Assembly: GCA_027031765.1 (NCBI GenBank) | Contig: JALVPN010000077.1 | Location: forward strand, 8,191-40,190 | Origin: Promethearchaeota archaeon | GTDB lineage: Archaea > Asgardarchaeota > Thorarchaeia > Thorarchaeales > Thorarchaeaceae | Direction: 5' to 3' | Length of the DNA: 32,000 nucleotides | Shown: piece after piece, positions 15,209 to 29,112 of the stretch | How positions within the stretch are numbered: the stretch's first letter is position 1 | Layout of the letters: the number at the start of each line of letters is the position of its first letter | Position numbers and translations under genes: made by a program | The notes under the pieces: model-generated | Told to the model about the DNA's origin: nothing | The model's database searches: none | What the model saw: only the letters and a program-made list of their open reading frames with translations

Positions 15209-15278
15209 CGGCCATATGTTACAGGCACACAGTCCCACTCATACGAATACGAGTCTGGCCGTCCAAAGATTCAGTGGG

Positions 15279-15854
15279 GTGCTCAAAATAGTAACTGCGC
15301 TGTTCAAAGTAATCCTCATGGGTGATGGCTCCGTCGGAAAGACAAGCCTGCGACGGGTGTACATGGGCGAGGGGTTCAAGGCATCGTACATGATCACAAT
15401 AGGGGCCGACTTTGCCGTCAAGAAGATGACCCTAGAAGGAGGCCACGATGTCAGCATTCAGATCTGGGACCTGGCAGGCCAAGAACACTTCAAGAGCGTC
15501 CGCTCCACGTTCTACCGTGGTGCCCAGGGTGCACTCGCAGTGTACTCCACAGTGGAACGGAGCTCCTTCGAGAACATTGAGAACTGGGTGGAAGAGTGCT
15601 GGAGCAACGCAGGCAAGAAGATTCCAGTCGTGTTGATTGGGAACAAGATTGACCTCCGGGAACAGTTCATAGACAACCCCGTAATGCGCCAGACCATTGT
15701 CACTACTGAGGAGGGACAGGCCCTAGCCGACAGAATTGCCCAGCGGGGCGTCCACGCGTCCTTCATAGAGACCTCTGCCAAGACCGGGAAGAACGTCGAG
15801 GCTGCATTCCTCGAACTGATAATCAGGATCTTGGAGGCCGGCGGGCTCTCATAG
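15279..15854 (+). CDS. Rab-like small GTPase 1
   Basis: G1 GDGSVGKTS, switch I TIGADF, G3 WDLAGQE, YRGA, G4 NKID, G5 ETSAKTG; no C-terminal prenylation Cys. Start is GTG 15279 or ATA 15288. Confidence 0.93.
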   Translation: MLKIVTALFKVILMGDGSVGKTSLRRVYMGEGFKASYMITIGADFAVKKMTLEGGHDVSIQIWDLAGQEHFKSVRSTFYRGAQGALAVYSTVERSSFENIENWVEECWSNAGKKIPVVLIGNKIDLREQFIDNPVMRQTIVTTEEGQALADRIAQRGVHASFIETSAKTGKNVEAAFLELIIRILEAGGLS

Positions 15855-15960
15855 GCACCTTGACAGCTGATCATTACATTGCCCTGCCCATGGCAAGATG
15901 TTGGGCACTGGGCCAGCCGACCAGATGAGGCAATCAGGGTGCTCGGTCAACCGCGGCAGG

Positions 15961-17175
15961 TCAGGCGGTCATGAGCACGCACGCGGATATGCGCTGGTAG
16001 AACTCACTTGCAGCGGTCTGGAGCACTTCAGGGGCGTCAGACATCGTGTGTATTTGCAGCTGACACTTCTTCGAGACCAGGTCACCGACCATCAGGACAT
16101 GGAGGACGACCTTCAGTCCCGTATAGCTACCTGTGCCAGCGGCCTTCAGGGATGCCATCAAGACACTGCTTTCACGACGGGTCTTGCAGTCGAAGGTGTG
16201 GAGGTTGCACCTGTCGAGCATGTCCCTGATGGCCTCGAACATCGTCACGGGGTCTACAGGCACCTCGTGCTCACGACTCCACCCCTTCATGGCCCGCAGG
16301 AGAGTGGCCTCTTCAGATGGCGAGATGTTGAGTGGTTCCAGCCGCTCGAAAAATGTCCGGACGGTGCAGTTCCCCGCAGGTGCAGACGCCCGCTGGCCGT
16401 CGACATCTGTGAACACCACCAGCGGGACAATCTCTCCCTCTATGCACTCGCGTGTCGCTGACATCTCAAACGTGACAGACCGTGCCTCTCCAGGTCCAAT
16501 ACGTGGGACTGTCCGCACAGTGCCATCGACCGGTCTCAGGCTGTCGGCCGGGTAGGCGAGCAGGCGTACGTCCACGTCAGTGATTGGGCCCTGCGTGTCA
16601 TTCGACACCCGGATCCTGAAGGTGACAGTCCCATCATTGACTGAGAGCTCGTTTGAGACTGAAACATCCATCCTCGTCCGGATGGGCACGGGGTCTAAGG
16701 ACATGGGCGCGGCAGGCTGGGAAACTGCTGTGGAAACGACCACCTGTGGGCGCTGACTCCCGGGTGTCCCCTGAGTGTGAGAATGGAGCACGGCCCACTC
16801 GTGTGCATACTCAGCTGCCTGCACTACCATCTCCAGAGGGTCGTCTTGGGCCAAGGCGAGGGTGTCCGACACCCCACTGGGGTCGATGGTGGTGAGGAAG
16901 ACAAGGGCTGCTGCGCGTACCTCTCCGGTGTCGTCATGACAGGCAATCTCAAGGCCCCCAATGGCCTCGGGCCCAAACTCAGCAAGCCGACATACAGCAA
17001 GGAGCCGGGTCTCAGGCTCGCCCGCGAGAGATGCGTCCTTGCATGCCTGTAGAGACCTCAAGCCCGACAGCATACGCGAGAGAGGGGGGTCAGACTCCTC
17101 AAGAAAGAGGGCCCGTCGTAGGCGTGAGAGGATGCCGCCAGAGTCATCAGGTGTGTTCTCCATGCCCGGACTCAT
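15961..17175 (-). CDS. HEAT-repeat protein with C-terminal Ig-like + platform (adaptin/coatomer appendage-like) domains
   Basis: HEAT-like RLLAVCRLAEFG.EAI..L....HDD..EVRAAA...L; low-complexity linker; beta-sandwich (FRIRVSNDTQGPITDVDVRL...IGPGEARSVTFEM...GEIVPLVVFTD); alpha/beta C-terminal domain. Confidence 0.7.
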   Translation of the reverse strand: MSPGMENTPDDSGGILSRLRRALFLEESDPPLSRMLSGLRSLQACKDASLAGEPETRLLAVCRLAEFGPEAIGGLEIACHDDTGEVRAAALVFLTTIDPSGVSDTLALAQDDPLEMVVQAAEYAHEWAVLHSHTQGTPGSQRPQVVVSTAVSQPAAPMSLDPVPIRTRMDVSVSNELSVNDGTVTFRIRVSNDTQGPITDVDVRLLAYPADSLRPVDGTVRTVPRIGPGEARSVTFEMSATRECIEGEIVPLVVFTDVDGQRASAPAGNCTVRTFFERLEPLNISPSEEATLLRAMKGWSREHEVPVDPVTMFEAIRDMLDRCNLHTFDCKTRRESSVLMASLKAAGTGSYTGLKVVLHVLMVGDLVSKKCQLQIHTMSDAPEVLQTAASEFYQRISACVLMTA

Positions 17176-17209
17176 ATGCCCACTTCATACTGGGCCCACT
17201 TCTGAGGCG

Positions 17210-17216
17210 ATATAAG
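17210..17216 (-). promoter_or_regulatory. Putative TATA box for the HEAT/appendage gene
   Basis: CTTATAT on the minus strand about 35 nt upstream of ATG 17175. Confidence 0.45.
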
Positions 17217-17421
17217 GTTATGGCACAACACAGCGGTGCAGTGGCACCACACTGTTTTGTCGGCCGGGGGACTGAGGACGTAGAGGGCGCTGTGGAGCAG
17301 CAGCAGTACAAACAACATGAGAGTTGACACCCGGACTGACGACAGTGTTGCAACTAGCAACTTTTTAGGGGAATACCGTCATAGCGAGCTACGACCCCCC
17401 CCCCACCATGAGGCGCATCAT

Positions 17422-18552
17422 ATGAGCGAGCACGAACTCACACTGTTCTTGAGACCAGAGACCATCAAGCCGCCTGCCGAGCACGGCTCCGAGCTCACAC
17501 GGAGGATTGCACTGAACCATGCAGGCCGATTGATTGCTGTGGGAATGCAGGACAAGAGCATCCGGCTATACGATGCAACCAACTTCGAGGAGATCCAGAA
17601 GCTCCAGGACAACTTCCTGAGCACGGCTCTGGCATTCAGTCCACGAGGGGACACTGTGGCATCTGGTGGTGTCGACAGGGTGGTAAAGATATGGGACATA
17701 AGGACGGGCGAGGTGCTCACGACACTGGAAGGGCACACATACCCGATTCTCGGGCTCTCGTTCTCACCTGACGGTAGCAGGCTCCTCTCAGCCAGCGGAG
17801 ACACGACGCTCATAGTCTGGGATCTCAACAGTGGCACCGAGTCCAGCAGGCTCAGGGGCCACAAGTTATACGTCATGTCCTGCGACTGGCATCCAGAGGA
17901 CGACCTCGTCGTGTCGGGGGCTGTCGACGCCACCATTGCACTGTGGGACCCGAACACTGGCAAGATGTTGGGCCAGTACGGCGAACACAGGACCGCGGTC
18001 CATGTGGTCAGGTTCTCCCCACAGGGTGACAGGCTCCTGTCCACATCATCGGACATGACGTGCAAGGTCTGGGACGTGGGCGGGGAGAGCGTCAGGCCCG
18101 TGCACACCCTTCAGGGGCACACAGCAGAGGTGAGGACGGCCACATGGAGCAGTGACGGAGAGCTCATCGCCTCAGGGTCCAGTGAGAAGGAGCTCTTCCT
18201 CTGGTCACTGGACTCACTGCAGGTGGAGGGGGAGGCACGTACAGCTGGGGAGATTGACGGGATAGAGTGGTTCCCTAGCAAGAAGGAGTTCGTCACAGCC
18301 GACAGTTCGGGGGCAATTACCCGCTGGCGCGTACAGGAGCTGTCCATTGTCCTGGCGCCATTCCGCGACCTGCTGGCAGAAATCCAGGCAGACAGCACAG
18401 GGGCGCACCGTGAGGAGCACATCCGCCAGTTTGACGACCTCGTGCAGCGCTACGGTGAGGAGACCCTGAAGGACAAGAGGGTGTTCTATCTGATGTGGCA
18501 GTGCAAGCGTGCACTGGGGCTCCTCAAGGGCAGACCAGCCGGTACACGGTGA
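17422..18552 (+). CDS. WD40 beta-propeller protein (about 7 blades) with a short helical C-terminal domain
   Basis: Repeated GH...FSPxG..L.S.S.D..V.IWD units (VVKIWD, LIVWD, IALWD, CKVWD, LFLWS, ITRWR); GAGGCG ribosome-binding site 6 nt before ATG 17422. Confidence 0.92.
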   Translation: MSEHELTLFLRPETIKPPAEHGSELTRRIALNHAGRLIAVGMQDKSIRLYDATNFEEIQKLQDNFLSTALAFSPRGDTVASGGVDRVVKIWDIRTGEVLTTLEGHTYPILGLSFSPDGSRLLSASGDTTLIVWDLNSGTESSRLRGHKLYVMSCDWHPEDDLVVSGAVDATIALWDPNTGKMLGQYGEHRTAVHVVRFSPQGDRLLSTSSDMTCKVWDVGGESVRPVHTLQGHTAEVRTATWSSDGELIASGSSEKELFLWSLDSLQVEGEARTAGEIDGIEWFPSKKEFVTADSSGAITRWRVQELSIVLAPFRDLLAEIQADSTGAHREEHIRQFDDLVQRYGEETLKDKRVFYLMWQCKRALGLLKGRPAGTR

Positions 18553-18568
18553 CCCCGTAACCCCCGGT

Positions 18569-19096
18569 TCACTGCTTCGTCGCGTCAATCATTAGTCGAC
18601 AGAGCATGGCGAATGCCTCTTCTACATTCTCTCCTGTCAACGCACTCGACTCAACATAGAGAAAACCATTGGCCTCCGCATACTCCTTGCCCTCGTCGGT
18701 TGCGACCACCCTGCTGTCGGTAAGGTCCACCTTGTTTGCTACGACCACCATCGGTACTTCCCGCCCGATATTGCTGAAACCCTCCTCTTTCCACCGGTCG
18801 AGGTTCAGGAAGGTGCGTCGCCGGGTCACATCAAAGACCAAGAGGCCCCCACGAGCACCCCTATAGAACCCCTGCCTGACGACTTCGAAACGGGGCTGTC
18901 CTGCAAGATCCCAGACTTGGAGCACGACGTTTGCGTCACGGTCGAGCAGTGACACCCTCTTGATTGCAAAGTCGGAGCCAATGGTACGTTTGTAGTCGGC
19001 CTCAAAAAAGTCCTGTGTGAACCGCAGGGTCAGTGCTGTCTTCCCGACCGCGCCGTCCCCAAGCATGACGACCTTGAACCGGTACTCAGCGGGCAT
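18569..19096 (-). CDS. Rab-like small GTPase 2
   Basis: G1 GDGAVGKTA, TIGSDF, WDLAGQ, FYRGA, NKVD, ESSALTG; no prenylation motif. Start ATG 19096 after GAGGATG. Confidence 0.93.
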   Translation of the reverse strand: MPAEYRFKVVMLGDGAVGKTALTLRFTQDFFEADYKRTIGSDFAIKRVSLLDRDANVVLQVWDLAGQPRFEVVRQGFYRGARGGLLVFDVTRRRTFLNLDRWKEEGFSNIGREVPMVVVANKVDLTDSRVVATDEGKEYAEANGFLYVESSALTGENVEEAFAMLCRLMIDATKQ

Positions 19097-19328
19097 GTGA
19101 CACACATCCTCGGTGGCTCACGGGTCGCGAGACCCTATAATCGTGACGCAGTCCAATGGCAGGACGCAAGTCGCTAGCGCAGGCCTCCCTTTTGAAGATT
19201 GCCTATTGCAACAAAGAGATGCGTGTTGCCTCCGACCAGTAGCGGCAGCACGCACTACTGACGGTGGCGGCACGTACATGCGCACTGGTCGTTGTTGCGC
19301 AGCATGTGGGTCATTGAGGCCAGTATTG

Positions 19329-19335
19329 TTTAATA
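19329..19335 (+). promoter_or_regulatory. Putative TATA box for the roadblock gene
   Basis: TTTAATA about 45 nt upstream of ATG 19380. A divergent candidate (TATAAT at 19136-19141) may serve Rab-like GTPase 2. Confidence 0.4.
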
Positions 19336-19379
19336 GCAGATTGGAAGAGCAAGGTACTGCTGGCATGGGGTGAAACAGG

Positions 19380-19760
19380 ATGAAGCGACCGGACTACGTG
19401 TTACTCGCTGAGATACTTACCGAGATGAACATGGAGGGTGGCTACACGGCATCTATTCTTGCCAGGGCAGATGGTCTGCTCGTGGCCTCTGCAAAGACCC
19501 CATCTGTGGACCAGGACATTGTGGCCGCCATGGCCGGGTATGTGTCTGCGACCGTGGAGAGGATGCGGGACGAACTCGCACTCGGGAATGTGCATGACAT
19601 CACCGTGAGGTGTTCAGAGGGCAAGGCGGTGTTCAAGAAGGTGCCGGTGACGGGGGAGGACCTGATCCTTGCAGCACTGATGCCAAGGGGGATACGATAT
19701 CACGCGAGACTCCTCGGCAAGACCGCGACAAAGATAGCGAGGATGTTCGGTAAGCAGTAG
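19380..19760 (+). CDS. Roadblock/LC7 (MglB/LAMTOR-like) domain protein
   Basis: 126 aa; SILARADGLLVAS, DIVAAMA......ERM..EL.LG....I.V....GK; GGGGTG ribosome-binding site. Confidence 0.88.
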   Translation: MKRPDYVLLAEILTEMNMEGGYTASILARADGLLVASAKTPSVDQDIVAAMAGYVSATVERMRDELALGNVHDITVRCSEGKAVFKKVPVTGEDLILAALMPRGIRYHARLLGKTATKIARMFGKQ

Positions 19761-20032: not shown

Positions 20033-20356
20033 GTGGCGGAGAACACCGGAACGGCAGACACGGACAATGCGGACGGGGCAATTGAGATACTGTTCTTCAA
20101 GTCTGACAGCTGCCCGTTCTGCCCCCGGGCCGAGGAGGTGATCCGTGAGGTCATCGGGGAGTTCGACCCCGGCGTGTTCAGACTCGTCGTCATCAACGTC
20201 TCGGAGAAGCCGGAGGTCGCAGAGGAGTATGGCGTGTTTGCCCTGCCCACCGTCGTTGTGGGTGGCATGTCAGTGACTGGAGTCCCCGAACCCGAGATGC
20301 TGGTAAAGATTATTCTCGGTTCAAGACTCTCAAGGAAAAGGAGAACGACCAGATGA
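20033..20356 (+). CDS. Thioredoxin-fold protein (CPFC), KaiB-like in sequence
   Basis: CPFC motif, INVSEKPEVAEEYGVFALPT cis-Pro loop; ATGA overlap with kaiC 1. Confidence 0.85.
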   Translation: MAENTGTADTDNADGAIEILFFKSDSCPFCPRAEEVIREVIGEFDPGVFRLVVINVSEKPEVAEEYGVFALPTVVVGGMSVTGVPEPEMLVKIILGSRLSRKRRTTR

Positions 20357-21096
20357 GCAAGTTCACAATTGAGCGCGTCAGGACCGGCATCCCCGGTCTG
20401 GATGAGCTGATTGAGGGCGGGTTCCCCAGAGGGGATACCATCCTTGTCGCAGGAAAGGCAGGCACTGGCAAGAGCATCCTTGCAGTGCAGTTCCTGTACA
20501 AGGGGGCAACCGAGTACAACGAGCCCGGTGTGCTCGTGACTCTGGAAGAGCCGCCCCACCTGATAAAGAGGAATATGATGAGGTTTGGCATGGACCTCGA
20601 GAGACTGGAGAGGGAGGGACTGCTTGCAATAGTCGACCTGTCACCGTCCAAAGAGAGGACGCCGGTCATGGTCGGGGAGTATCCCAGTTTTGACCTCTCA
20701 GGACTGGAGGCAATAATCCTCAGTCATATCCGACGCATAAAGGCCAAGCGGGTGGTCATTGACACGCTCTCAATAATGGCATACAAGTTCCGGAGCAGGG
20801 ACATCCTCCGGGAAGAGTTCTTCAAACTGTGTGCGAGCATTACCGGCGAGGGGTGCACCCTGTTGCTCACCAGCGAGATCCCGGCACAGGACACCGGACT
20901 CGGCGTCTTTGACATTGAGACCTTCCTCGCATCGGGAGTAATCGTCCTGTACAACGAGAAGATCAGCGAAACGTCACGTTCGCGCTCAATTGAAATACTC
21001 AAACTGCGCGGCTCAAAACACAGCTCACGTATCCACTCGATGCGGATAACCGACGAGGGGATCCGTGTATGGCCGGGTGAGATACCCGGACACTGA
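20353..21096 (+). CDS. kaiC: KaiC/RAD55-family single-domain ATPase 1
   Basis: TGIPGLDELIEGGFPRG, Walker A GKAGTGKS, catalytic TLEE, Walker B VVIDT, R-finger ILKLRGSKH. Confidence 0.92.
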   Translation: MSKFTIERVRTGIPGLDELIEGGFPRGDTILVAGKAGTGKSILAVQFLYKGATEYNEPGVLVTLEEPPHLIKRNMMRFGMDLERLEREGLLAIVDLSPSKERTPVMVGEYPSFDLSGLEAIILSHIRRIKAKRVVIDTLSIMAYKFRSRDILREEFFKLCASITGEGCTLLLTSEIPAQDTGLGVFDIETFLASGVIVLYNEKISETSRSRSIEILKLRGSKHSSRIHSMRITDEGIRVWPGEIPGH

Positions 21097-21126
21097 CCGA
21101 CAACACTGTAGTGTGGAGTGTGACCT

Positions 21127-21834
21127 ATGAGGCCAGAAGTGAGGACAACAAGCAGGCGCCGCGCACTGACGGCACGGCCCATGATAGACGACCTTGTGAA
21201 GTTCGGCCAGTTGACACAGGTCTCGTACGTGCTTGTTGGCCCGCTGGGTTCCGGCAAGACCACATACGCTGAGGCGTTCATTGCCGAGGGGCTGAAGCAG
21301 GGCTTCCCTGGGGTGTTCGTCACCACGGACGTGTCGCCACGGGTCATAAGGAATGACATGAGCCGCCATGGATGGCCTGTGGAACGGTACGAGCAGTCAG
21401 GACAGATGGTGTTCATTGACGGGTACTCAGAACGGATGGGGGCACCAAAGATGGGCAGTGCCCGCGCCCTGACAAAGGTCGATGACATAAGCGAGCTCGG
21501 TATTGTGCTGTCCGAGGTCCTCGAAGGCCTTGTGGTGGCGCGCGTGGTCGTTGACAGCCTGTCGACCCTGATCCTCCACTCAGCACCCACCACCATGCCA
21601 CGGGCTGTCCAGAGGCTGAGTGGCCGCATCACACAGAGCTCGCACAGCATAATGTACATCCTTGAAGAGGGTGTGCACGACGACAAGGTGTACGCTACAT
21701 TCTCGTATCTCATGGACGCTGTGCTCAGGTTCCGACTCGTCGAACGTGAGGGACAGACAGTCCACCAGGTGCGGATGGAGCGGATGCGTGGCACAGAGGC
21801 CTCACGTGAGTGGCACGACTTTGTGCTCGAATGA
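21127..21834 (+). CDS. KaiC/RAD55-family single-domain ATPase 2 (catalytic EE replaced)
   Basis: Walker A GPLGSGKTT, VTTDV in place of the EE motif, FIDGYS, Walker B VVVDSLS, RMERMRG. Confidence 0.88.
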   Translation: MRPEVRTTSRRRALTARPMIDDLVKFGQLTQVSYVLVGPLGSGKTTYAEAFIAEGLKQGFPGVFVTTDVSPRVIRNDMSRHGWPVERYEQSGQMVFIDGYSERMGAPKMGSARALTKVDDISELGIVLSEVLEGLVVARVVVDSLSTLILHSAPTTMPRAVQRLSGRITQSSHSIMYILEEGVHDDKVYATFSYLMDAVLRFRLVEREGQTVHQVRMERMRGTEASREWHDFVLE

Positions 21835-21997: not shown

Positions 21998-24298
21998 TTG
22001 AGGAAACTGATTGTCGCGACATTACGGGAGATACTCTGTGCATCAATGTCACTCGATGATGGACTGTCAGCAATCCAGAACATATCCATAGGGCACACGG
22101 AGGAGTCGGACATCCCATATGACATTGCAAGGGCAATAGAGGAGATACTCCTCCGTAGACCGGGACTGGCAAGTGCCAAGTTGATGGAGTTGACAGTACG
22201 CCTCTCCTCGGACCCGGACCGGACGCTCCCAAAGATGTTGATGCTCCTTGACACGAGGTCCAACACTGCATATAGGAGGGGCGAGTGCGAGATACTGCCA
22301 GATATCCAAGCCCTACCACAGCTGCTGGACATCCTTGGCGAGCTGTCCAGCGCAGTCATGGACGGGCTGTCCCTGAACCTCAGACCACTGATCCCGTTCC
22401 TTGCAGACGAGATGCTCATGACGCTGACATCCATAGTCGACCGGGGACACCCCGCGTCGACGCGGCTTGCAGTCAGGGAGACCCACCACCTCGCGAGCAT
22501 CCTAGTAGACAGGGGCTTCTACGAGTGTGCGGAGCTGCTCTTGGAGGCGCTCGTACGGGTCGCGGCCGAGGTGCAGGACGAGAGGCTCTACTTTGAGGTC
22601 GCCATCGACCATGCCGTCGTACTGACCGAGACCGGTCTCTACAAGCAGGCACGGACTATCCTCGAAGACCTTGAGAGGAGGGTCAAGGAGAACAGTGACG
22701 TGGCCGCACAGGCGGCAGTGGCCCTGCAGATTGCAGTGAACGAGACCCGTGATGACACTGTGGACCATACCACTGCAAGGGCGTCTGCGGACAGGGCGGT
22801 CGAGCTGCACCGGCTGGCAGTGGAACAGGGGCGCATGGCGCCTGACGAACTGGCCGTTGCCGAGCTGACGGTGGGGGTGAACATCTTGGCCAACGGCTGG
22901 CGGGAGGCCGTCCCACAGGCAATGGAGCGTCTGGAGGCCGGGCTTGCGGTCTACGAGGAGATGGACTCGCTCACCCAAAGACAGGCCTCCCACTGTTTCA
23001 AGGTCCTGGCCGGACTGGGGTTTGCGCACGGCCTGCTGAGTGACCACGACAATGTGACTCTGAGCATCAGGTACCTGAGACGTGCTGAGGCACTGTTGAG
23101 GGAGTCTGTGAAACCAGAGGAGGACATCACAGAGAAGATTGCTGCATGTGAACACTGCATTGGCTGGGTGTGTCTGTGTTCGGAGTCCGACGAACACTGG
23201 GAGCTGGGCATCGACGCCTTCAGAAAGGCCACCGAGTTGCGTCGTGCCCTTGTCGGTGAGGGGCGGCTGTCATGGCTCGCCCTACTCGGTAGCGAGCTTG
23301 GCCATGCACTGTCGTTGATACGGACTGCAGGAAGGATGGACGAAGGGCTCCAAGAACGCCTCGTAAGGATTATGCACCAGTATACCCTGTTGTTCCCGAC
23401 CGATCTGCGGGCCTTCGAAGAGGCTGCCATTGCTACCTACAACATTGTGTGGCTAGCCTCACGACATGGGGCGGAGCTGTCACAGGAGTTGCTCCGACTC
23501 CTTGAGGACATAGACAGGATGTTGACCGATGCGACGCCTGTGGAGGACTCTGTCTTCGTGCGCGGGATCTCCCTACTGATGCCATACCTGAAGTCGGACT
23601 GGAGAGCACTGCGGTACAGGGCCGAGGCCCTGCTCCATGCTGGCGGCCCACTCAGGGACGTGGTACTGCTGATGAGCACGCTGGCAAAGATGCGCATCGC
23701 TCTAGACTACATGACCCTAGAGAGCATCACGCAGGTGATAACGGGTCATGACGGACAACTGGACGGCACCGACGAGCTAATGGCGAGGTACTGGGACGGA
23801 CAGGTCGTACTTGCAAGGGCAGTGGCAGCATTCTACGGTAACAAGGACTACACTACACTCGCCCAAGGGCTGTACGACGCGGCCGTGATGCTCAGAGGCG
23901 TACTACATGCAACGACCGACTTTGAAGAGGCTGCCGAGTTTGTAAGGGCCACGGCCGGCTCGCTAGCGGGTGTACTCCTGAGGTTCGCAACGGCCCTGGA
24001 GAAGACCTACGGCGCGAGAATAGAGAAGAGCACCCCCGACATCACCCCAGCAGACCTTGAGGACACGGGCTTCAACTTCATCCTGTCAGAGGACTGGATT
24101 GGACTGCTGAAGATAACCAACGCGTATCTTGAGATGGTGGAGAGAGCAGAGCTGGCCCAGGCAATGCCATACCTCAACGCAGTCTTCTCAAACATTGCAA
24201 GTGCACTACGGATGATGGACCGCATTGCAATGGTCGACAGGCGCATGCTGAACAGGCTCGGCGAGGAAATGAACAGGCGGTACTATCTCAGGCGCTGA
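21998..24298 (+). CDS. Large alpha-helical TPR-like/solenoid hypothetical protein (766 aa)
   Basis: Long ORF with TPR-like helical pairs (GFYECAELLLEAL, GLYKQARTILEDL, LEAGLAVYEEM, ACEHCIGWV...AFRKATELRR); no catalytic motif recognised. Confidence 0.75.
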   Translation: MRKLIVATLREILCASMSLDDGLSAIQNISIGHTEESDIPYDIARAIEEILLRRPGLASAKLMELTVRLSSDPDRTLPKMLMLLDTRSNTAYRRGECEILPDIQALPQLLDILGELSSAVMDGLSLNLRPLIPFLADEMLMTLTSIVDRGHPASTRLAVRETHHLASILVDRGFYECAELLLEALVRVAAEVQDERLYFEVAIDHAVVLTETGLYKQARTILEDLERRVKENSDVAAQAAVALQIAVNETRDDTVDHTTARASADRAVELHRLAVEQGRMAPDELAVAELTVGVNILANGWREAVPQAMERLEAGLAVYEEMDSLTQRQASHCFKVLAGLGFAHGLLSDHDNVTLSIRYLRRAEALLRESVKPEEDITEKIAACEHCIGWVCLCSESDEHWELGIDAFRKATELRRALVGEGRLSWLALLGSELGHALSLIRTAGRMDEGLQERLVRIMHQYTLLFPTDLRAFEEAAIATYNIVWLASRHGAELSQELLRLLEDIDRMLTDATPVEDSVFVRGISLLMPYLKSDWRALRYRAEALLHAGGPLRDVVLLMSTLAKMRIALDYMTLESITQVITGHDGQLDGTDELMARYWDGQVVLARAVAAFYGNKDYTTLAQGLYDAAVMLRGVLHATTDFEEAAEFVRATAGSLAGVLLRFATALEKTYGARIEKSTPDITPADLEDTGFNFILSEDWIGLLKITNAYLEMVERAELAQAMPYLNAVFSNIASALRMMDRIAMVDRRMLNRLGEEMNRRYYLRR

Positions 24299-26378
24299 CC
24301 CCATGGGGTACGGGCCTGTAGTCTGCCGACCGGGCCCCCCAAGTGGCCCACCCCGATGTCGATGTGCGGATCTCGGCCGCCAGGCCAAAGGACTCCCGCA
24401 CCGGTATCTCGGCGACGATCCGGTACAGCGTCCGCTCCGCATCGATAGCGAGCACCTCACCCTTTCTGCGTGCGAGGACGGATGTTAGTACTCCGACGTA
24501 CTCTTCCGGCGTGCTAATCTCAAGGTGCGCCCATGGCTCCATGAGCACCGGGTCACCGGTCACTATACTGGCCCTTGCCGCATCAATCAGTGGTTGGGTC
24601 ACCTCACGCCACGAGGTCTCAGGGCCCTGGTACCGGATGTCAGCCCTGCTGATGACGAGCGCCAGACGACGCATCCTCTCACCGGCCACAGGCCCATAGC
24701 GGATCACATTGCGGAACGCCTCACGCACCCACTCTGCAGCCTCAGACTCCGGGTCGACCGAGCCGGAAACGTCGAGCATGGTGCATGCAGTGTGTGGCTC
24801 ATGGTCAAGCAACGTGCCAGCAGTGTCCGGCCCTGACCCGGTGGGTGCTAACAGGGCCCGCACGGCAAACTCACTCACCTCCCCCCCACCGGCCACACAT
24901 ACCTCGCCGTCATGGGACAGCTGCTCCTTTAGGAGGACCATCGGCTTGCCAAGGACCACGTGGACACCCTGACGGGCGAGCTTCTCCACCGTGACCTCTA
25001 TGTGCAGCTCGCCAGCGCCAGAGAGCAACATCTCACCGGTCTCTGGGTTGACCTCGAACTGCAGTGCCGGGTCCGTCTTCACAAACTCACGTATTGGCCC
25101 CTCAATCCGCCCCAGGTCAGACAGCACCTTCGGCTCAATCGTGAACGTTACGACCGGTTCAGTGGGGTACCGCAGCTCGCTGATCGGGCACATATCATCG
25201 ACTGAGGGGTCGACAAGCGTGTCACCGGTTGCAATCCCCGTAACGCCCGTAAGGAAGGCCAGGTTGCCCGCAGGTACGGCAGGGAGTGACACCCGCGTCC
25301 GGGACATCCTGATACCGACCTGCAGGGTCTTGTCGGTACGGCCCGTGCGCACCACCCGGAGCGGGCGTCCACGTTCCAGAGTGCCTGAGAACACGCGGGC
25401 CACGGCCACAACCCCTGCGTGCCGGTCGGGTCTGGTCTCGCCGATGAGGAGGACACATGGTGCTGTAGGGTCGCATGACAACAGCCCCCTGCCGACATCA
25501 GACGACTGGTCACCGTCCCAAAAAGCAGGCACACGATAGCGCTGCGCCACCGTAGGGGGAGGGACCGTACGCACGAGGGCATTGAGGGCGGCACGGGCCA
25601 CCGGGTACTTGTCAGCAAGGGACATGTGCTGTCCTGTGGCGTATGCACCCACGACCTCGCTGACAATCTCCATGAAGGCGGTGGCAAGAGAGGCACGGTC
25701 GTGCTTACCACCAGCATGCCGGACGAGGTCTTCAAGTCCGACGCCCCACTTGTGCAGGGCCGACCCGATTACGAGCGACCCACGCAGGAATGAGACCTCC
25801 CACTGTCGGAGCAGGCTGTCGTCCAAGTACTTGCCAAGCATGGCGTTGAACTCACGGACGACCCTGTCGATTGAGGCAGCAACGCGTGGCGCGTCAAGAT
25901 GCTTCTCCCTACACAGACGGTCCACCTTGTTCACCATGAGCACCGGACGGACAAGCTCCTCCATGGCCTGCCGCGTAACGGTCTCCGTCTGCACCATGAT
26001 GCCCTCAATCACATCTACCACGATGAGTGCGCCGTCTGTCAACCGGAGGCTGCGGGTGACATGGCTCGAGAAGTCGATGTGACCGGGTGTGTCCACCAAG
26101 TGCACAAGGTGTTCTCTGCCCTCAAACTCATGCACCAGAGTGATGCCAGAGGCCTTTATTGTGATGCCCCGCTCCTGTTCGATACGGTCGTAGTCAAGGA
26201 GCCGTGCGGATGCTGCTACCTCCTGTGACAGCAGGCCGGAGGCTGCTATGAGCGAGTCAGTCAGGGTCGTCTTCCCATGGTCGATATGAGCAATCACAGT
26301 GCAGTTGCGGATCCGGTCGTGCTGTGATACAAGACCTGCCACTCTCTCGGTGACGAACTTCTTGTAGAGGTGCGACAC
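24288..26378 (-). CDS. Archaeal EF-2 paralog (aEF-2p-like) lacking the diphthamide His motif
   Basis: AHIDHGKTT, RGITI, DTPGHIDF, NKVD, GAGELHIE, LMEP, PVRESFG; domain IV loop reads DIRYQGPETSW with no HRG. Confidence 0.88.
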   Translation of the reverse strand: MSHLYKKFVTERVAGLVSQHDRIRNCTVIAHIDHGKTTLTDSLIAASGLLSQEVAASARLLDYDRIEQERGITIKASGITLVHEFEGREHLVHLVDTPGHIDFSSHVTRSLRLTDGALIVVDVIEGIMVQTETVTRQAMEELVRPVLMVNKVDRLCREKHLDAPRVAASIDRVVREFNAMLGKYLDDSLLRQWEVSFLRGSLVIGSALHKWGVGLEDLVRHAGGKHDRASLATAFMEIVSEVVGAYATGQHMSLADKYPVARAALNALVRTVPPPTVAQRYRVPAFWDGDQSSDVGRGLLSCDPTAPCVLLIGETRPDRHAGVVAVARVFSGTLERGRPLRVVRTGRTDKTLQVGIRMSRTRVSLPAVPAGNLAFLTGVTGIATGDTLVDPSVDDMCPISELRYPTEPVVTFTIEPKVLSDLGRIEGPIREFVKTDPALQFEVNPETGEMLLSGAGELHIEVTVEKLARQGVHVVLGKPMVLLKEQLSHDGEVCVAGGGEVSEFAVRALLAPTGSGPDTAGTLLDHEPHTACTMLDVSGSVDPESEAAEWVREAFRNVIRYGPVAGERMRRLALVISRADIRYQGPETSWREVTQPLIDAARASIVTGDPVLMEPWAHLEISTPEEYVGVLTSVLARRKGEVLAIDAERTLYRIVAEIPVRESFGLAAEIRTSTSGWATWGARSADYRPVPHGVSA

Positions 26379-28315: not shown

Positions 28316-28747
28316 CAGCACCACCTCTGCGAGAGCGTCCGACCAGCGGGACCGAGTGACGGCTTCTCGACACACTGTTGGGCGTACAAGTGTGCTGCAC
28401 ATACTGTTGGGCGCTCTCGCTTCTATGAGGCCACGGACGGACGTATTTAAGGTTAGACAAGACAGACGGATGACTGTGGTCTGTCGTCGGCCGAGCATCG
28501 GGGGGTCATGTGGCCTTTAAGAGGGACTGTGTAGGATAACTGCTGTGGCCCCCATCTCATCGACCATACGTATTAGCGGCACCACGCATCAGATGTGGGA
28601 TGACAGAATGGATGGAAATGGTGACGACCACCATGTATCATGGCACGGGATGTCGTGTCAAAGTGACGGCAGACTGTGGCCCACGCCCGGGAGGGCCCCA
28701 GGGGCATCTGGAGGCCGTTCCATGCAGGTGTCTCATAGACAAAACGC

Positions 28748-28754
28748 TTTTATT
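28748..28754 (+). promoter_or_regulatory. Putative TATA box for the glutaredoxin-nrdD operon
   Basis: AAAACGC-TTTTATT, about 90 nt before the glutaredoxin start. Confidence 0.45.
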
Positions 28755-28842
28755 GCCGGTCACGAGAGGTAGTCCGCGTGCCTGTCGTCGGCAGAAACGG
28801 CAGGTGTCAGATGAGCCGGGAGGACTGTACTCGCCGTTGACG

Positions 28843-29112
28843 ATGCTCTACGTCATAACTCAGGAGCAGTGCCCAAACTGTCCCGCTGCAAAGGCAGTGG
28901 TGGAGGAGGCACTGGCCGGTACAGGGATTCCTGTACGAATAGTGGACCTCAAGGAGATGGATTCAGACTTTGAGTTCACACTCCTCGAACACCAGGTCTT
29001 CATTGCCGCGACCCCGAGCATCATTATTGAGGACAACGGCTCACTGAGGCTCCTCAGCAGCGGGGCTGTGCCCACAACCGAGGAGGTCCGCAATGCCGTC
29101 GGAGTGGAGTGA
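28843..29112 (+). CDS. Glutaredoxin/NrdH-like thioredoxin-fold protein (CPNC)
   Basis: LYVITQEQCPNCPAAK, ATPSIII; ends 6 nt before nrdD. Start is ATG 28843 or TTG 28837; the longer track ORF spans the putative promoter. Confidence 0.82.
   Translation: MLYVITQEQCPNCPAAKAVVEEALAGTGIPVRIVDLKEMDSDFEFTLLEHQVFIAATPSIIIEDNGSLRLLSSGAVPTTEEVRNAVGVE

Follow-up and report, generated by a model that had tools for sequence, protein, structure and literature searches.

We begin by considering three adjacent genes of a Thorarchaeota-type Asgard archaeon (genome of 2.95 Mb, 95% completeness), which encode a small thioredoxin-fold protein (called Trx here) and two KaiC-like proteins (KaiC1 and KaiC2). The window that we analyse is a stretch of 32,000 nucleotides (nt) of contig JALVPN010000077.1, and positions are those of the window unless another contig or locus is named. 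Trx (20033-20356, + strand) is a protein of 107 amino acids (aa) of the MJ0307/Thioredoxin_3 type, with CPFC at residues 27-30 (codons TGC CCG TTC TGC, 20111-20122, + strand, read straight off the sequence) and a cis-proline at P72. It starts with a GTG immediately after an in-frame TGA, and a GGAG lies 10 nt 5' of this GTG. KaiC1 (20353-21096, + strand, 247 aa, PF06745 at 242.6 bits) is a single-domain, CI-like KaiC ATPase and KaiC2 (21127-21834, + strand, 235 aa, PF06745 at 107 bits and DUF7504 at 39 bits) is a diverged KaiC-like protein; both genes have a GGAG 8-9 nt 5' of the start. The ATG of KaiC1 (20353-20355) and the stop TGA of Trx (20354-20356) overlap as ATGA, and from the end of KaiC1 at 21096 to the ATG of KaiC2 at 21127 the spacing is exactly 30 nt. 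An earlier interpretation, made from the letters of the DNA (the sequence-only reading), had pointed to this overlap, to the 30-nt spacing, to the CPFC and to the motifs ILKLRG and ITDEGI in KaiC1, and each of them is found in the sequence.

The next question is whether the arrangement is kept in other genomes. Among the Thorarchaeota species-representative genomes, in which the loci were found by a thioredoxin profile, KaiC1 lies directly 3' of Trx in 64 of 64, and a Roadblock gene lies 5' of Trx in all 64 loci. Wherever the contig permits, KaiC2, a 766-aa protein and a convergent EF-2-like gene come next in the row; further 5' there follow a divergent Rab-like GTPase, a WD40 protein, a 404-aa protein and a second Rab-like GTPase. 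The row of Roadblock, Trx, KaiC1, KaiC2 and the 766-aa protein is present in 23 of the 23 genomes of the same family that have a KaiC1 match, and also in one other family of the order. In 57 of 67 loci the stop of Trx overlaps the start of KaiC1, by 8, 4 or 1 nt (distances of -8, -4 or -1), and the other loci have no more than 10 nt between the two. The gap between KaiC1 and KaiC2 measures 9-57 nt, the exception being the distant G399 locus, where the two genes overlap by 4 nt. Because Trx stands directly before KaiC1 in 64 of 64 loci and the stop-start distance is tight in the 67 loci, the arrangement of Trx and KaiC1 is far beyond chance. The synteny survey that the sequence-only reading had proposed as a check thus finds the linkage conserved and the two genes translationally coupled.

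We turn our attention to the two KaiC proteins. KaiC1 had been described as CI-like, and the comparison with the solved KaiCs bears this out: it matches their CI domains at 155-181 bits (about 47-50% identity) and their CII domains at 67-82 bits. The Walker A motif (GKAGTGKS), the catalytic E65-E66, the Walker B residue D137 and the arginine finger R219 are conserved and place the protein in the KaiC family; its orthologs are 76-89% identical across Thorarchaeota, and no other gene of the row is as conserved. The scores against the circadian-KaiC models lie below their cut-offs (TIGR02655 at 206.6 bits, cut-off 408; PRK09302 at 162.8 bits, cut-off 546), and in the alignment F191 and L192 occupy the positions of the KaiC phosphosites S431 and T432. 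The alignment with Synechococcus elongatus KaiC locates the B-loop region at residues 96-118 (20638-20706, + strand), which end with SFDLSGL, and pairs F113-D114 of KaiC1 with F122-D123, the two residues that S. elongatus KaiC requires for binding KaiB and SasA (bioRxiv 10.1101/2020.06.17.158394). KaiC2, of which the best solved relative is PH0284 (87 bits), keeps a Walker A motif (GPLGSGKT), the Walker B residue D143 and the arginine finger R221; its catalytic Glu-Glu is replaced by an invariant D68-V69 (TTDVSP), and these motifs do not vary in the KaiC2 alignment. This protein is probably a nucleotide-binding subunit with poor hydrolysis. Neither KaiC1 nor KaiC2 has a conserved cysteine, and KaiC2 has no cysteine at all.

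In the tree of KaiC sequences, the thioredoxin-linked KaiCs form two supported clades that are apart from the unlinked paralogs. A single clade of the thioredoxin-linked KaiCs is not rejected (p-AU, the p-value of the approximately unbiased test, 0.42), which, as the group was delimited with the tree already in view, means compatibility with a single origin and nothing more. The B-loop and its F-D motif were also considered as a marker of the thioredoxin-linked KaiCs; they fail as such, for unlinked paralogs carry both. The closest paralog of KaiC1 in the genome (40% identity) is found on contig C144, about 8 kb from another thioredoxin-like open reading frame (ORF) and not adjacent to it (76502-77197 and 85285-85521 on that contig).

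We now consider how Trx and KaiC1 may fit together. The sequence-only reading had proposed to model this complex and to compare it with that of KaiB and CI. Run as a pair, with alignments built for the pair, the model of KaiC1 and Trx has a score of 0.76 (0.77, 0.76 and 0.76 in the runs), and the best control has 0.00; the mark that this score passes is attained by 58 of 80 solved complexes and by 2 of 110 mismatched pairs. The contacts agree to at least 97% between the runs, and the partner has a mean predicted local distance difference test value (pLDDT) of 79. According to the model, the KaiC1 side of the interface is formed by residues 94-96, 100, 102-118, 120-121, 123-124 and 146, which are the B-loop and the helix that follows it, with F113 and D114 included. 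The Trx side is formed by residues 22, 24, 26-29, 32-33, 56-57, 60-61, 63-73, 75, 77-86, 89 and 92-93, that is, by the CxxC face, the cis-proline loop, the β3-β4 hairpin and the start of α3, with β2 left free; C27 and F29 of the CPFC are predicted to be inside the interface. In the published complex of fold-switched KaiB (fsKaiB) on CI, the C-terminal half touches the B-loop and β2 is free for KaiA and CikA (PMC6378743), and the predicted interface of Trx and KaiC1 agrees with that description. The docking is predicted to be like that of KaiB and SasA, a result that may owe something to the memory of the modelling program, as discussed below. The seven residues that are invariant in all the KaiC-linked partners (F22, P60, G67, P72, G77, G83 and P85) are all located in the predicted interface, and the interface residues of Trx are far more conserved than its remainder (entropy of 0.32 vs 1.22 bits).

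The sequence-only reading also held that a segment of Trx, residues 47-73 (GVFRLVVINVSEKPEVAEEYGVFALPT), parallels cyanobacterial KaiB, and it proposed to compare the scores of Trx with the KaiB and thioredoxin profiles. The likeness is real and weak, and the thioredoxin profile wins. Against Pfam, the top match is Thioredoxin_3 (PF13192) at 36.6 bits, above the cut-off of 24.8, and the KaiB family (PF07689) follows at 24.9 bits, below the cut-off of 27. Against NCBIfam, the top match is the MJ0307 family (TIGR00411) at 55.7 bits, under the equivalog cut-off of 92.75, and the KaiB models stay far below theirs (TIGR02654 at 20.2 bits, cut-off 145.3; PRK09301 at 20.4 bits, cut-off 110). The solved proteins that a profile of 25 members of the Trx family matches best are MJ0307 (PDB accession code: 1FO5, 63 bits) and MTH807 (1NHO); a wider profile of all the KaiC-linked partners gives 89 bits for 1FO5, 74 bits for 1NHO and 31.4 bits for a KaiB chain (8FWJ_M), which is level with the classical thioredoxins. 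The hidden Markov model (HMM) of KaiB gives weak matches to the KaiC-linked partners of all lineages (18-26 bits) and, at E<=1e-3, finds 24 of the 25 KaiC-linked members of Thorarchaeota, the best at 1.3e-7. The same HMM gives zero matches at E<=0.01 among five Thioredoxin_3 paralogs that have no KaiC linkage, a contrast between linked and unlinked proteins that is drawn from a small sample of related sequences.

The AlphaFold model of Trx (pLDDT 82.5) has the minimal b-a-b-a-b-b-a thioredoxin fold, in a single predicted conformation, and this is also the thioredoxin-like active fold of KaiB; it is the same fold as fsKaiB, which was reached only upon realigning the 1000 best chains. In a Foldseek search of the PDB with this model the top 50 are all thioredoxins, with KaiB not among them. 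The language-model neighbours of Trx and of a cysteine-less partner from another lineage (described below) are Thioredoxin_3 and glutaredoxin clusters, those nearest to Trx being Thioredoxin_3, and no KaiB cluster is among them. Of 65 orthologs, every one retains C27 and C30, and the cis-proline P72 is invariant as well. From these profile and motif comparisons we place Trx with the MJ0307/Thioredoxin_3 thioredoxins and not with KaiB. Membership in the KaiB family fails on the scores under the cut-offs, on the presence of the CPFC, a motif that KaiB lacks at the start of helix 1 and that Trx shares in this respect with none of the KaiBs, and on the single-domain KaiC partner, where KaiB has a double-domain (CI-CII) KaiC.

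Within its own kind, Trx carries an invariant GIPEPE motif, an acidic N-terminal tail and a basic C-terminal tail, and its subfamily is narrow: 1.84 billion proteins yield 24 cluster representatives at E<=1e-10. Two distant relatives (P0083 and P0084, E about 1e-11) have no KaiC linkage, and among the members examined, none of those outside Asgard archaea is linked to KaiC. Elsewhere in the genome there are three canonical PF00085 thioredoxins and a thioredoxin reductase, and a search with the KaiB models finds no true KaiB in it. Because the canonical thioredoxins and the reductase sit elsewhere and a true KaiB is absent, Trx is a specialised paralog.

Other thioredoxin-like proteins were met along the way. 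The window holds a second Thioredoxin_3 protein (28600-29112, + strand, 170 aa, PF13192 at 33.4 bits), which has no KaiB match, and Thorarchaeota have a CxWC paralog family (MILLFTS.HC.WC) that shows no KaiC linkage in the loci examined. In another Asgard family, three loci (L111, L121 and L127, of G122, G117 and G124) encode proteins of about 660 aa, in which an N-terminal region of PAS-like appearance is followed by a thioredoxin-like domain with 35-38% identity to Trx over about 70 residues. These proteins may be fusions of a sensor and a thioredoxin.

The adjacency of Trx and KaiC is also found in four other Asgard families (G025, G036/G041, G399 and G030/G040), with a variety of companions. 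Of all the results, what these lineages show tells the most. In G399 the order is Trx, KaiC and a degenerate KaiC (DUF7504). Immediately 5' of the KaiC-linked thioredoxin of this locus there is a 117-aa ORF (L133, 5674-6027, - strand) with a weak PF00085 match of 18.9 bits; the two would be tandem thioredoxin-fold genes that precede the two KaiC genes. In G036 and G041 a Trx with CGFC and a KaiC are followed by a Gtr1/RagA-like GTPase; in the former (L134, 3535-6714, + strand), three small ORFs (139, 100 and 152 aa, with no significant Pfam match) stand ahead of the Trx, KaiC and RagA-like GTPase genes, and a divergent TPR protein lies downstream. In G030 and G040, for which the family name 'Ca. 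Freyarchaeota' is taken from NCBI sources, the operon consists of a thioredoxin-fold protein, a KaiC, a fusion of 380-420 aa and a Roadblock/LC7 protein. The fusion joins a KaiC-like domain that has a degenerate Walker A motif to an Arf/Ras-like GTPase. Its N-terminal domain matches KaiC2 (38 bits) somewhat better than KaiC1 (27 bits), and its GTPase part has 33% identity to the Rab-like GTPase of the window that is described below as the Thor-Rab ortholog.

The Freyarchaeota partner retains its place before KaiC, and TPxY replaces CxxC in 8 of 8 sequences. Judged by these residues, the protein cannot be present in the operon as a reductase, and, because orthologs without the cysteines remain linked to KaiC, the role that is conserved would be something other than the disulfide reduction of a substrate.

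The small-GTPase neighbourhood is the most informative context of the Trx-KaiC genes, and the sequence-only reading had not tied the operon to it. The Roadblock/LC7 protein 5' of Trx (19380-19760, + strand, 126 aa) matches PF03259 at 28.2 bits (cut-off 23) and has the same orientation as Trx. Divergent from this row lies a Rab-like small GTPase (18569-19105, - strand, PF00071 at 168.9 bits), which is orthologous to the Thorarchaeota Rab known from a crystal structure (Thor-Rab; PDB accession code: 7EZB, 299 bits over 174 residues). A Ras-superfamily GTPase that adjoins a Roadblock/LC7 gene in this way constitutes an MglA/MglB-like module. On the other side, 3' of KaiC2 and in the same orientation, the 766-aa protein (21998-24298, + strand) is helical, has no Pfam match and is probably TPR-like, its nearest Atlas clusters being TPR proteins (0.95, a weak assignment with low recognition). 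Single highly conserved cysteines are found in the Roadblock protein (C78), in Thor-Rab (C169) and, at two positions, in the 766-aa protein (C14 and C392).

Combining the information of the linkage, the family assignments and the modelled complex, we explore what the three proteins may do. We propose, with the chances about evenly balanced, that Trx is a dedicated binding subunit of the KaiC1 ATPase, made together with it in stoichiometric amounts, rather than a general reductase. Its active-site face would dock on the exposed B-loop of KaiC1, where fsKaiB and SasA's thioredoxin-like domain bind CI, and the thiol state of the CxxC would decide whether Trx and KaiC1 bind. Because the CxxC is in the predicted interface and strictly conserved in Thorarchaeota, and the KaiCs have no conserved cysteine, redox-dependent binding would be the likeliest role of the cysteines. 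There is a precedent for such a use of the fold. The thioredoxin of E. coli on T7 DNA polymerase (PDB accession code: 1T7P), and thioredoxin on ASK1, bind a loop of the partner by the active-site surface without thiol-disulfide exchange, and it is the reduced form that binds; the partner family and the biology are different here, and the redox dependence of Trx is inferred. The pair of KaiC1 and KaiC2, one active and one catalytically weakened, would relay the redox and nucleotide state to Thor-Rab and Roadblock, perhaps on the 766-aa protein as a TPR-like scaffold. The output is placed at a small-GTPase switch because a GTPase, a Roadblock protein and a fusion of a dead KaiC with a GTPase recur at these loci. 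The gating by redox state, the way in which the signal runs and the GTPase link are steps that we infer, and the gating is less likely than the binding itself. What the predicted docking would suggest is an archaeal switch with a possible redox input rather than a clock.

There are several concerns that weigh against this proposal. The strict retention of the CxxC also fits a catalytic role, and the sequence and language-model features of Trx are those of an ordinary MJ0307-type thioredoxin. The strong conservation seen in the Trx interface is confounded with that of the active site and the fold core, and on the KaiC1 side the conservation in the interface does not exceed that of the remaining protein. 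A B-loop with the F-D motif is found in KaiC paralogs that have no thioredoxin neighbour, which means that the linked copies do not have the docking site to themselves. The high score of the complex may derive from what the modelling program retains of the solved complexes of KaiB and SasA with CI (5JWO and 6X61), a concern that arises because these complexes are solved and KaiC1 is about 47% identical to CI; the score is a likeness, not a proof that Trx and KaiC1 bind. The link to the GTPase, finally, is drawn from the gene neighbourhood and from a single fusion that another lineage carries.

The simplest alternative is that Trx is an ordinary catalytic thioredoxin, which reduces disulfides in other proteins, possibly Roadblock, Thor-Rab and the 766-aa protein, and which sits in the KaiC operon for co-regulation, without binding stably to KaiC1. 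The best relatives of Trx are the redox-active MJ0307 (1FO5, 63-89 bits) and MTH807, the CxxC and the cis-proline are kept in 65 of 65 orthologs, the genome encodes a thioredoxin reductase, and the Roadblock, Rab and 766-aa proteins have single conserved cysteines. We nevertheless regard this alternative as unlikely. The Freyarchaeota orthologs are linked to KaiC in spite of the loss of both cysteines, and the overlap in 57 of 67 loci is specifically with KaiC1, which, like KaiC2, offers no conserved cysteine to reduce; canonical thioredoxins are present elsewhere in the genome, and the complex model passes where its controls score 0.00.

The direction of control may also be reversed, so that the nucleotide state of KaiC1 and KaiC2 covers or exposes the active site of Trx and the reductase activity is the output. 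In the predicted interface, the nucleophilic C27 and the substrate groove are buried, the CxxC is strictly conserved, and a nucleotide-dependent release is made plausible by KaiB, which binds CI after ATP hydrolysis only (PMC6378743). The Freyarchaeota partners, which have no cysteines, cannot be a redox output, and the model of the complex comes with the same caveats as above; this reversal appears rather improbable to us. That the genes form a true timer of KaiB and KaiC, an hourglass or an oscillator split into single-domain rings with Trx as the KaiB ortholog (the sequence-only reading had spoken of a possible switch or timer), is very hard to credit: in its favour are the identity of KaiC1 to CI (about 47-50%), the fold that Trx shares with fsKaiB and the weak but consistent matches to the KaiB HMM, and against it are the KaiB scores under the cut-offs (24.9 vs 27; 20.2 vs 145.3), the lack of a true KaiB in the genome, of a CII domain and of KaiA, the F191/L192 at the S431/T432 positions, the absence of the catalytic Glu pair from KaiC2, and the published surveys, in which KaiB outside cyanobacteria is reported solely with full-length KaiC and the 250-aa KaiCs have no KaiB (PMC5520375).

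Returning to Trx as a binding subunit of KaiC1, we compare it with the systems already described. The Trx-KaiC1 arrangement is predicted to work, at the B-loop, like KaiB and the N-terminal domain of SasA on CI. The differences are that Trx is of the MJ0307 type with a conserved CxxC in the predicted interface and is not known to switch its fold or to form a tetramer, that a single-domain KaiC and a second, weakened KaiC take the place of the fused CII, that the phosphosites and KaiA are lacking, and that the context is a Rab-like GTPase and a Roadblock protein, where Kai has the output kinases of a clock. With MJ0307 and MTH807, Trx shares the minimal fold, the CxxC and the cis-proline; unlike them, it lies below the TIGR00411 cut-off and belongs to a narrow Asgard subfamily with an obligate linkage to KaiC.

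The pair of KaiC1 and KaiC2 has its own relatives. Archaea have KaiC-like signalling ATPases, among them inactivated KaiC (iKaiC) domains, according to Makarova, Galperin and Koonin (2017) as cited in PMC5847659. What they share with the pair described here is that an active single-domain KaiC stands together with a degenerate KaiC-like protein and that the neighbourhood is one of signalling; solved examples are PH0186 (2ZTS) and PH0284 (2DR3). In the literature that we searched on these ATPases, with the 2017 survey itself outside the search, we found neither a thioredoxin-fold partner nor a connection with a Rab/Arf-like GTPase described. On the GTPase side, the system to compare is MglA/MglB, in that the Thor-Rab ortholog stands beside Roadblock and that in Freyarchaeota the GTPase and Roadblock share an operon with the KaiC pair. 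We know of no GTPase-Roadblock system that includes a KaiC ATPase or a thioredoxin. The paper on Thor-Rab (PMC10933270) mentions neither KaiC nor thioredoxin, and our search of the literature on Asgard, KaiC and GTPase together found no paper that describes this module.

If the docking is real, the single-domain KaiCs of archaea would have in Trx their first candidate for a partner, and the Asgard partners would make up a natural series that begins with a CxxC thioredoxin and ends with a cysteine-less, KaiB-like adaptor, by which the origin of KaiB would become testable. The crystallised Asgard Rab-like GTPase would gain a concrete upstream regulator, and the redox and energy state would be tied to a GTPase signalling of eukaryotic type, in those archaea that stand closest to the eukaryotes. 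The interest thus lies in the evolution of KaiB and in the regulation of Asgard GTPases, on the basis of comparative genomics and of one in-silico docking; all the parts are small soluble proteins. The sequence-only reading had called Trx KaiB-ancestor-like. A further, speculative step, to which we give a low probability, would make the Asgard Trx-KaiC a present-day relative of the pair that gave rise to KaiB-KaiC: a redox-active MJ0307-type thioredoxin would first have become the B-loop subunit of a single-domain, CI-like KaiC, the loss of the cysteines in some lineages, as in Freyarchaeota, would have led to KaiB, and the redox/ATP module would control a Rab/Arf-like GTPase through a dead KaiC and Roadblock.

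The genes described here are part of an island of ten that is kept across Thorarchaeota, in which window positions 15216-19760 and 21998-26378 flank Trx-KaiC. The order is a Rab-like GTPase, the 404-aa protein (- strand), WD40, the Thor-Rab ortholog (- strand), Roadblock, Trx, KaiC1, KaiC2, the TPR-like 766-aa protein and the EF-2-like GTPase (- strand). The genes of the last two meet at their 3' ends, which share 11 nt (24288-24298).

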